DNA of 64,000 nucleotides from Lama glama (Eukaryota). A model generated the notes under the pieces. It was not told where the DNA came from. It worked only from the letters and a program-made list of their open reading frames with translations, and made no database searches. Made by a program: the position numbers and the translations under genes. The number at the start of each line of letters is the position of its first letter. The stretch's first letter is position 1. Location: the NCBI GenBank assembly GCA_028534125.1, contig CM052827.1:67580001-67644000 (forward strand). Reading direction: 5' to 3'. Below, in pieces: positions 19,707 through 37,140 of the stretch.

Positions 19707-22283
19707 TTAAATCCCGTTTGCAAAGGGAACGTTTATGTCTTGATTCAATGCTTCTTTGACTTCCAGGGGCAGGGTGTCAAAAAGGTGATCTTCCACAACA
19801 AGCCCGCTTTTCTTGAGCAGGCGGCACTGGCCCAGCTGGGCTGGCAGGCGGTCCAAGCAGTTCCCCTTCAGCTCCAGCTGCGTGAGCTGGGAGAGCTGCC
19901 CGATCTTCTCTGGGAGGGACGTGATGCAGTTCTGCCCCAGGTTCAAAGTCCTCAACTTGACGCATTTGAACAACTGCTTTGGCAGAACGTCCACTTTGTT
20001 CCCCGTGACATGCAAATGCTGCAGGTTCTGAAGCAACCCTATTTCTACAGGAATCATGGAAATGTTGTTGTAGCTTACATCTAAACATCGGAGTTTCTGT
20101 AAACTGAACACTGCCACGGGTAAGGACTCGAGCTTGTTGTTAGAGAAGTAAAGTGACTCGAGGTTTTTGACGTGGGTGATGGAGGGAGGAATGGTGACAA
20201 TTTTATTATGCCACAATTTCAAGCAAGTCAGTCGTTTCAAATGCTGGAAACTGATGATTTCCTCAATTGTGCGGATGTTGTTTGACTTTAAATCTAGTTC
20301 CTGTAAGTTGGAGAGGCTGAAAATCGCATGTGGAATCCTCTCGAGCTCACAGCTCTGGAGTTCGAGCTCGGCCACGTTCATCATTTTCTTAAGGCTGTTC
20401 AGGACCAAGAGTTTCGTGCCGTCATTATGGATGACCAGCTTGGTAAGGTGTGGGGCCACGTCGGTAATGTTGGAGGGAACTTTGGTCAAGTTGCTCTTCA
20501 CGTGGAGGATCTTCAGGTGCCGCAGCTCCCGGAGGGATTCAAGCCCAATCATCTTGTTGTTTTCGGAGTTCAAGTTGCCGATCAAGTACAGCTCCCGGAG
20601 GTTTTTGAGCAGGTACACCCAGGCGGGGATTTCAGCCACATCCGTGAACTTCACGTGAAGGCATCGCAAGTGATCGCGGAGAAAGCTGAAAGCGGTCTGC
20701 TCCACTTTCGCAGGGCAGTGGCAGAGGTGAAGCTCTTGGAGGTTAGTCATCTGAGAAATCTTCGCAGGGATTTTCGCCTCTGGAATCAGCTCGAGCTTCA
20801 GCACGTCCAGGTCCGTGAGGTCAAAGACGGCGTCGGGCACCCCCGACAGCATGAACAGGTGCAGCTCCTGCCTGTCCTGCGCGTTGCGGGACACGTGCTG
20901 CCTCAGCTTCTCAAAGGTCCACTCGTGGTTCAGGCTGATTTCCCTGAGTTTGTTTTCACTGACTTCCGACAGGAACACGCCGAAACGCTTGGAATAGAGC
21001 TGGTCGTACTGGTCTACCATGTGCAGGAGGAACGCGAAGTCATTTTTGACGTCGGGGATGTCGCTGAAACTGCTCTCCTCTCGGACCTTCTCGAAGGAGT
21101 ACTCCTTCAGGGGAATGCGGAGCAGCCAGAAGAGGGTGTAGAGGCAGATGAAGCCATAGACGCAGATGATGGAGATGTAGCTGACGAGCAGCTTCCTCAG
21201 CATGTGGGCCATGTTGTGGGTGCACGCGAACTCCTCATAGCCCGTCAGGTGCTCCACTCTCGGCTTGCAGACGTGCTCGAAGCTGATGGCGTTGACAAAG
21301 TTCGCGGTGTAGCACAGGATGAAGATGAACTTGGCCGTTTTGACGACGGTCTGCACCACGTAGAGTTTGTAGATCAGGTCGCTGTCTTCCACGTGCGCGC
21401 GGAACTTCCTCACCTTCTCAAACAGGGCTTTGGCCTGTTCCCCGTCCTTTTTGTCCAGAATGGTCATGCTGGGGACTTCGATCACCGGCTTCTCGGCTGA
21501 AAACTTCAAGCCCGCCTTGCTGATCATCGGGGTGCTGGCGCTGGGGCTCCCCTCGTCGCTGCTGGTGGACACGTGCTTGGGCAGGGCCTGGGCACCGGCC
21601 ATCCTCTGCTTGTTCTCCTCCGAGTCCTCGCACGCCGTCTCTGACAGCGCCTTGGTCGTCCAGGGGGACTCGAAGCACTTGCCCAGTATGGAGACAAAGT
21701 GCTCCACCTTCGAGCACGTCTTGGGGTACTTGAGCCAGAAGTTGCTGCTGACCATGAGAATGAGCGTGTGGATCAGCGCAAGGTACGGGAAGTACTTGGA
21801 GTACCAGGGGAGCGCCAGGTGGTAGCACATCTGGTTAATGAACACGTACTGCTGGAAGTCCAGGTTTGTTTTTCGGCCTGCGGGATCCTTCTCCTCTTTC
21901 TTCACCTCCTGATCGGGAGCTGCGGCATCTGTGTGAGGATACGTGGCTCTGAGAGGCATGTCGGGCGTCACAGCAGATGTGCCGAAGGAAGTCTCCTTCG
22001 CCGTCCGCCCGTCTCGGTCTTGCTCCGTGGCTGGTTCCGCCCTCGGGATGTGGGTGGTGACGTCGGCACTTCCCGGGGGCGTGTGTGCCTTTGAATTTAT
22101 AGGAGACGGCAGCACCGGCAAGCAGACCACCTGATCTTTGGTAAGCTGCATGGTTCCCGCAAAGATGGCTACCATCAGCATGACGACAGCCAGGTAATCC
22201 ATAAACACGTCCCACCATGGTTTCAGGATCCGGTAAGTCGGCTGGATGTCATTGAGCGAAGCAACCTCCGCAAGGGTGAACAT
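19707..22283 (-). CDS. LRRC8D: Leucine-rich repeat-containing protein 8D (VRAC/VSOAC subunit SWELL4), complete CDS in one exon, 858 aa
   Basis: 858-aa ORF starting MFTLAEVASLNDIQPTYRILKPWWDVF. It has the LRRC8/pannexin-like 4-TM domain, the long LRRC8D-specific extracellular loop 1, LDFQQY (F143 constriction residue), a C-terminal LRR array, and ends ...VPFANGI. Length equals that of human LRRC8D as I recall it. Confidence 0.99.
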   Translation of the reverse strand: MFTLAEVASLNDIQPTYRILKPWWDVFMDYLAVVMLMVAIFAGTMQLTKDQVVCLPVLPSPINSKAHTPPGSADVTTHIPRAEPATEQDRDGRTAKETSFGTSAVTPDMPLRATYPHTDAAAPDQEVKKEEKDPAGRKTNLDFQQYVFINQMCYHLALPWYSKYFPYLALIHTLILMVSSNFWLKYPKTCSKVEHFVSILGKCFESPWTTKALSETACEDSEENKQRMAGAQALPKHVSTSSDEGSPSASTPMISKAGLKFSAEKPVIEVPSMTILDKKDGEQAKALFEKVRKFRAHVEDSDLIYKLYVVQTVVKTAKFIFILCYTANFVNAISFEHVCKPRVEHLTGYEEFACTHNMAHMLRKLLVSYISIICVYGFICLYTLFWLLRIPLKEYSFEKVREESSFSDIPDVKNDFAFLLHMVDQYDQLYSKRFGVFLSEVSENKLREISLNHEWTFEKLRQHVSRNAQDRQELHLFMLSGVPDAVFDLTDLDVLKLELIPEAKIPAKISQMTNLQELHLCHCPAKVEQTAFSFLRDHLRCLHVKFTDVAEIPAWVYLLKNLRELYLIGNLNSENNKMIGLESLRELRHLKILHVKSNLTKVPSNITDVAPHLTKLVIHNDGTKLLVLNSLKKMMNVAELELQSCELERIPHAIFSLSNLQELDLKSNNIRTIEEIISFQHLKRLTCLKLWHNKIVTIPPSITHVKNLESLYFSNNKLESLPVAVFSLQKLRCLDVSYNNISMIPVEIGLLQNLQHLHVTGNKVDVLPKQLFKCVKLRTLNLGQNCITSLPEKIGQLSQLTQLELKGNCLDRLPAQLGQCRLLKKSGLVVEDHLFDTLPLEVKEALNQDINVPFANGI

Positions 22284-36789: not shown

Positions 36790-37140
36790 ACACTAGATCC
36801 TAGGGCCAGACGGTCTGGGTTAAACTCTTGACTCTGCTGGTTACTAGTTTTGCTACTAGGCAAGTTATTTGATCTCTCTGTGCTTTAGTTATCTCACCTG
36901 TGAAATGGCAGTGGTGGCAGGAGTAGTGTGCTGGGGGGAGAGGAGGAGAAACAGGAGGAGGAGGAATGAGGATGGTGATGATGGTGAAGATGGTGAGGAT
37001 GGTGATGATGATGGTGGTGAAGATGGTGAGGATGGTGGTGAAGATGGTGCCACCGCCTCCCTCAGAGGGCTGCTGTGAGAATTAAACGAGCTAATATACA
37101 CAAGCACTGAGAACAGTTCTCGGCACAAAGTAAAGGCCAC
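36790..37140 (+). mobile_element. MIR with an internal (GAT/GGT/GAG)n low-complexity expansion at ~36955-37048
   Basis: tctgggttaaactcttgactctgct...ggcaagttatttgatctctctgtgctttagttatctcacctgtgaaatgg [repeat] ctcagagggctgctgtgagaattaaacgagctaatat...cggcacaaagtaa. Confidence 0.85.

Follow-up and report, generated by a model that had tools for sequence, protein, structure and literature searches.

We analyzed a 64,000-nucleotide window of the llama (Lama glama) genome (assembly GCA_028534125.1, contig CM052827.1, positions 67,580,001 to 67,644,000; this contig is scaffold C12 in what follows) that contains LRRC8D, the gene for a conserved protein of the cell-swelling channel. Outside extracellular loop 1 (EL1), llama LRRC8D departs from the placental majority approximately six times more often than the orthologues of four other laurasiatherians, and most of the departures are changes from A or T to G or C (weak-to-strong, W→S; the reverse is S→W). 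We consider GC-biased gene conversion (gBGC) under high distal recombination the probable cause of the excess A/T-to-G/C replacements that were fixed in camelid LRRC8D. The llama case is real and apparently not previously reported, a fairly ordinary instance of a common and well-known process.

Rate and direction of the replacements

The comparison rests on the following features (positions are those of the window; GC3 and GC4 are the GC contents of third codon positions and of fourfold degenerate sites).

19707 to 22283, minus strand: LRRC8D coding sequence, a single uninterrupted frame of 858 amino acids; GC3 0.775, GC4 0.79; the sole 100% match in the genome.
21864 to 22118, minus strand: variable EL1, codons 56-140; differs from the placental majority at 20 positions (W→S at 12, S→W at 2).
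20871 to 21764, minus strand: block of llama-only replacements, codons 174-471; 10 replacements, all of them single W→S changes; GC3 of codons 141-471, 0.89.

The majority residue was taken from 12 non-camelid placentals. Departures are tip-versus-majority counts at columns with at least 80% agreement of the other placentals, a procedure that misses changes at variable columns and leaves kinship uncorrected; all W→S and S→W counts cover amino-acid replacements only. Llama-only changes are those absent from the dromedary, in a comparison that leaves aside the LRRC8D of pig, cattle, alpaca and Bactrian camel. The last LRRC8A column, an exon boundary artefact, was dropped.

Llama LRRC8D differs from the placental majority at 41 sites: 30 changes are W→S and 2 are S→W, one each is W→W, S→S and multi-step, and 6 are ambiguous. 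Of the replacements, 21 lie outside EL1, a loop that is variable in other mammals too. Outside EL1, the llama has 19 departures and the dromedary 16, compared with 1 in wapiti, 5 in dolphin, 1 in horse and 6 in bat (Poisson p=2e-9), that is, the llama excess over the four other laurasiatherians is approximately sixfold. Of the 38 distinct camelid departures, 28 are W→S and 3 are S→W; the remaining 7 belong to other classes. We compared the observed W→S fraction (0.90) with 18 opportunity nulls, obtained by combining two coding sequences, three mutation models and three acceptance thresholds; the expected fractions range from 0.25 to 0.61, and the largest p is 3.5e-4. Ten changes outside EL1 are llama-only (I174L, F184L, T233A, T257A, K342R, E353A, Y360H, K363R, F388L and K471R). 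All ten are W→S, and they are clustered in codons 174-471 (P=0.002 versus uniform placement), with five in codons 342-388. Outside EL1, the dromedary has nine changes of its own, seven of them W→S and two S→W, which span codons 342-812; the positions of the two sets differ, the dromedary's being later (Mann-Whitney p=0.0025).

A sequence-only reading of this stretch had listed 16 replacements outside EL1 relative to human LRRC8D and described nearly all of them as single W→S changes. The 16 listed residues and the seven codons quoted with them are correct as given, and all 16 reference residues agree with PDB chain 6m04_A, which we take to be human LRRC8D. Measured from the majority residue of the 12 other placentals, I228M and F259L are ambiguous, and the remaining 14 replacements are all single W→S changes. 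At each of the 16 sites, at least 10 of the 12 non-camelid placentals have the reference residue; the camelid state is therefore derived and not one shared with other laurasiatherians. The dromedary has six of the 16 replacements as well, which places the changes on two branches. The predicted imbalance of direction appears in the camelid ratio of 28:3. The list is real throughout but selective, because it leaves out 12 more differences from 6m04_A outside EL1; these include the camelid W→W change V351E and the camelid W→S changes N644S, I746V and I759V. At other omitted sites (e.g., 347, 464, 810 and 822), the llama residue is found in other laurasiatherians; at several of the omitted sites, it is human that stands apart. 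The same reading had placed the changes in the GC3-saturated middle of the exon and had found an AT-richer stretch nearly unchanged; the gradient is present, with a GC3 of 0.89 in codons 141-471 and of 0.57 in the following feature.

20034 to 20363, minus strand: codons 641-750, lower GC3 (0.57); two camelid-shared changes, N644S and I746V.

A scaffold end and a divided GBP cluster

Scaffold C12 has 68,090,767 bases, and LRRC8D, at 67.60 Mb, is 0.49 Mb from its end. A degenerate TTAGGG array with the G-strand pointing outward is found ~9.5 kb from this end (~68,081,200-68,081,500). GBP exons are split between C12 (67.97-68.06 Mb) and scaffold C9 (73-142 kb), and C12 ends inside the GBP cluster; many further GBP exons are found on small unplaced contigs. 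Beyond the GBP exons of C9, at 250 kb, are TFIIB-domain exons that presumably belong to GTF2B, a neighbor of KYAT3 in human.

KYAT3, the GBP genes and LRRC8B are described as contiguous in marsupials, monotremes and primates (PMC12486975), so the split in the llama is either derived or an assembly break. C12 and C9 joined would measure ~130 Mb, whereas the listed contigs reach at most 80.5 Mb for dromedary LRRC8D and 79.9 Mb for Bactrian LRRC8B; this difference favors a true fission. We therefore infer that the GBP split likely marks a camelid fission breakpoint. The start of C9 is AT-rich with little GC shift (repeat ratios of 1.04-1.22, defined below), so it offers no mirror-image support for a telomere on the C9 side. 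A subtelomeric position after a rearrangement, which the sequence-only reading had guessed, agrees with the scaffold-end locus and the divided GBP cluster; that the scaffold end is a chromosome end is our inference.

GC shift in the non-coding repeats

The GC enrichment is not confined to codons but extends over the window.

1 to 64000, no strand: GC-shifted distal region (C12:67.58-67.64 Mb); non-coding GC 0.53, CpG observed/expected ratio (CpG o/e) 0.58.

We aligned repeats pairwise to copies in low-GC interstitial loci and counted the columns with G/C in the test copy and A/T in the reference copy against the reverse; locus L116 was dropped from the interstitial set because it sits at the end of scaffold C3. 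At 67.38-67.96 Mb (56 loci), this asymmetry is 1.60 (95% confidence interval (CI) 1.41-1.79) and, outside CpG-prone sites, 1.69; over LRRC8D itself (15 loci, 2,120 aligned bases), it is 1.69 (1.45-2.41). Among the controls, 12 GC-matched loci give 1.09 (1.02-1.23), and 33 low-GC interstitial loci give 1.00 (0.93-1.08). Repeat pairs that are at least 82% identical still show the shift (1.43, CI 1.12-1.82), which fades inward, to 1.31 at 67.0-67.35 Mb and 0.92 at 65-66.8 Mb. CpG o/e is more than 2 standard deviations above the interstitial regression in 44 of the 56 core loci versus 3 of 45, and is about doubled relative to GC-matched loci (0.50 versus 0.27). At 13 other scaffold ends, sampled at three loci each, six ratios are 1.49-3.51, six are 0.81-1.24, and one end has no alignable repeat; thus, the C12 end behaves as an ordinary distal end. 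Few repeats in the window are alignable to other sampled loci, fewer than in the interstitial loci.

LRRC8 genes in other mammals

Fast, W→S-rich evolution recurs among mammalian LRRC8 genes. Pocket gopher LRRC8D departs from the majority 39 times (W→S:S→W 23:2) and, like the llama, has T257A, N255S and K471R; judged from the aligned proteins, it appears to be an independent episode with parallel changes. Across 37 tip-gene rows, rate and skew are correlated (rho 0.33, p=0.046) when fur seal LRRC8C is excluded; 18 of its 25 departures could not be classified, probably because an isoform was misaligned.

Suoids and pangolin show fast, strongly W→S-skewed evolution of the same LRRC8 cluster: W→S:S→W is 12:0 in pig and 23:1 in peccary for LRRC8C, and 20:2 in pig and 14:2 in pangolin for LRRC8B. 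In pig, the cluster is on chromosome 4, a few Mb short of its end. Shrew LRRC8C is skewed the opposite way (1 W→S to 12 S→W). In lagomorphs (pika and rabbit), the LRRC8D-like sequence is divergent (83-88% identity), and EL1 is shortened in pika.

Proposed mechanism and alternatives

If gBGC is the cause, as we think probable, a chromosome break inside the GBP cluster of camelids would have turned the LRRC8D region into a chromosome end, near which recombination would then have risen. Repair of heteroduplexes in favor of G/C would have fixed changes that are for the most part conservative and under weak selection (I>V, K>R, T>A, N>S and F>L), at first on the camelid stem and later in each of the two lineages independently; the llama-only and dromedary-only changes would differ in position because the hotspots lay in different parts of the exon. 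This is the process that the sequence-only reading had named, and direction, position and the GC shift of the repeats agree with it, as do the W→S lean of neighboring LRRC8B (9:2) and the count of 2 departures in the distant LRRC8A; the direction skew, however, exceeds that seen for LRRC8D in other mammals only weakly.

That last point belongs to a set of observations that count against gBGC as the explanation. The other placentals lean W→S in LRRC8D too, 48:18 when pooled (Fisher versus camelids p=0.065) and 22:6 outside EL1 (p=0.44); without the gopher, the ratios are 34:16 (p=0.030) and, outside EL1, 13:6 (p=0.13). The rate excess is therefore firmer than the contrast in direction. A scan of metagenome contigs for LRRC8D orthologue DNA confirmed 1 of 27 candidate stretches, from a bird and none from a mammal; the bird locus (GC3 0.50 and GC4 0.49, versus 0.775 and 0.79 in the llama) is too distant to polarize synonymous sites, so the bias is shown at the protein level. 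Llama LRRC8C, 170 kb nearer the scaffold end, is not accelerated (6 departures, 3:2), and the skew of LRRC8B (15 departures, 9:2) is not significant (binomial p=0.065; Fisher versus others p=0.50). The assembled C12 end has no terminal telomere array, only the degenerate TTAGGG, so the chromosome end is an interpretation of the scaffold end, and the last 130 kb of C12 shows no repeat shift (1.03). Finally, the repeat asymmetry cannot tell fixation bias from mutation bias.

The last of these points bears on local mutation bias, in which less CpG decay or W→S-leaning mutation near the end would raise GC in repeats and codons alike, without any bias in fixation; the high CpG o/e could then reflect germline hypomethylation. 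The asymmetry, however, is equally strong outside CpG-prone sites (1.69), and reduced CpG decay removes S→W changes, adding neither W→S replacements nor a sixfold rate excess; moreover, the distal GC gain of mammals is established as mostly fixation bias (PMC8336415). We regard mutation bias as quite unlikely. Relaxed purifying selection with drift, which we consider unlikely, could give a W→S appearance because conserved A/T-rich codons (I, K, N, T and F) have G/C-richer conservative neighbors; the marginal camelid excess over the 48:18 of other mammals and the presence of 6 of the 10 llama-only residues in other vertebrates are compatible with it. Yet the nulls that model such opportunity reach at most 0.61 W→S, against the observed 0.90, LRRC8A and LRRC8C are not accelerated in the same genome, and neither the shifted non-coding repeats nor the GC3 of 0.89 where the changes cluster would be explained.

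Positive selection driven by aridity or altitude, with organic-osmolyte transport by camelid LRRC8D as its target, would account for the clustering of the llama-only changes in the membrane and loop part (P=0.002) and for replacements at F184 and F388, which are otherwise invariant; LRRC8D does shape organic-solute permeability (PMC7229184). It gives no reason, however, for ten W→S changes in ten, the two camelid lineages changed different sites, the pore residue F143 is unchanged, and the same fast W→S-rich pattern is seen in gopher LRRC8D, pig and peccary LRRC8C, and pig and pangolin LRRC8B, so we judge it very unlikely. An assembly or sequencing error is hardly conceivable: the exact protein is absent from a collection of 15 billion proteins, but 14 of 24 listed sequencing runs contain 0.98-1.00 of the 268 words sampled (13 are flagged as possible sources of the same DNA, the exception being run X9, with 1.00), the reading frame is uninterrupted, and 6 of the 16 listed changes recur in the dromedary protein. 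Six RNA runs with 0.43-0.46 of the words were left out of account. Ectopic conversion from paralogues was also considered; it is unlikely, the closest paralogue stretches being 70-78% identical.

Consequences for the protein

The residues that bear on function are as follows.

21732 to 21734, minus strand: L184 (CTC); the vertebrate LRRC8D homologues with a residue there all have F (146 of 146); L in llama LRRC8B.
21120 to 21122, minus strand: L388 (CTC); the vertebrate LRRC8D homologues all have F (147 of 147); L in llama LRRC8A and LRRC8B.
21225 to 21233, minus strand: E351 and A353; E351 is common to the dromedary (W→W), A353 is llama-only (W→S).
21855 to 21857, minus strand: F143, the pore-constriction residue, unchanged; role from PMC7229184.

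The set of 146-147 vertebrate homologues includes fish duplicates and D-like copies, and in it the new residue is found elsewhere for 6 of the 10 llama-only changes. At codons 351 and 353, which we place in the second extracellular loop, an acidic residue is gained at one position and lost at the other, two positions apart. With an uninterrupted frame and F143 in place, the channel is predicted to stay functional, and a mild or near-neutral effect on the protein seems likeliest. The sequence-only reading had spoken of purifying selection being overridden in a conserved channel; that description would rest on the rate excess and the two otherwise invariant sites.

A more specific version, which we put forward tentatively and think rather doubtful, is that the camelid fission in the GBP cluster created a new end at which two separate gBGC episodes (in the membrane part here and in the leucine-rich domain in Old World camels) fixed the function-changing F184L and F388L, with local compensation of V351E by the later E353A; the gating or organic-osmolyte permeability of camelid volume-regulated channels would then have been altered non-adaptively.

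The LRRC8D locus and its other features

The gene is identified by its best match, LRRC8D; it is single copy and adjoins LRRC8C (67.77 Mb) and LRRC8B (67.87 Mb) on C12. A retrocopy or duplicate is ruled out by the single syntenic copy. Llama and dromedary LRRC8D have 29 differences, the closest pair for the llama among the 16 proteins compared; the other placental orthologues differ at 42-73 positions. For LRRC8B of the llama genome, 20 of 23 departures are common to the Bactrian camel. Compared with other LRRC8D orthologues, the llama protein is full-length, encoded in the LRRC8B-C-D cluster and retains F143; it differs in its 21 replacements outside EL1, two of them at sites that do not vary among the vertebrates examined.

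A long open frame on the opposite strand had been attributed to the lack of TTA, CTA and TCA codons over at least 390 codons. None of these codons occurs between codons 262 and 660 (397 codons), and the frame exists.

20307 to 21500, plus strand: mirror-frame open reading frame, 397 codons, ATG at 20328; not treated as a gene.

Its openness has a codon-shuffle P of 0.014, in a shuffle that ignores the GC3 gradient. The GC3-rich paralogue LRRC8A also has a mirror frame, and a longer one (445 amino acids); the LRRC8D mirror frame is accordingly read, from its sequence context, as an apparent by-product of high GC3. Upstream of the LRRC8D coding exon, at 36967-37049 of the window, is a short GAT/GGT trinucleotide-like tandem array with a period of 33 or 9.

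Comparison with known cases

In murine rodents, 29,845 exon- and lineage-specific gBGC episodes have been described, with 6.9x more non-synonymous W→S changes on the branches with punctual episodes (PMC12290510). The llama case resembles these episodes in its clustered A/T-to-G/C non-synonymous changes in one exon on particular branches; unlike it, the murine episodes are defined by synonymous clustering, whereas the llama case is known from replacements. Because it involves the camelid stem and both daughter branches in a shifted region of ~1 Mb, it is closer to the murine multi-branch or gene-wide classes. As in the high-GC regions of gerbils, with divergent proteins such as PDX1 (PMC7574485, PMC7403616), a conserved protein in a GC-rich cluster has probably been accelerated by GC-biased substitution in a manner that mimics positive selection; llama LRRC8D is a much milder case, being 94-95% identical to other laurasiatherian orthologues with mostly conservative changes. 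The distal position, high GC and raised protein divergence also recall mammalian subtelomeres, where these features are attributed to gBGC (PMC8336415); that paper stresses old subtelomeres shared across eutherians, whereas the llama end appears to be derived, from the break in the GBP cluster.

We found no report of the LRRC8D case in the literature on LRRC8D in camelids and on camelid biased gene conversion, in a search that supplementary gene lists and most subscription papers fell outside. The string 'lrrc8' occurs 0 times in the main text of PMC8336415, PMC10691551 has no match for camel, alpaca or LRRC8, and the accessible portions of PMC6598621 and PMC7288448 contain nothing on the LRRC8D locus.

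Implications

The same signature is seen at other scaffold ends of the llama genome and in the LRRC8 genes of other mammals. In an animal famous for its osmotic physiology, a conserved channel with this pattern would be taken for a case of positive selection, although a bias linked to recombination accounts for it better. With a rearrangement that can be dated, two sister lineages that provide replicate episodes in one exon, and a channel that can be assayed, the cost of residues fixed by gBGC is directly testable in camelid LRRC8D.

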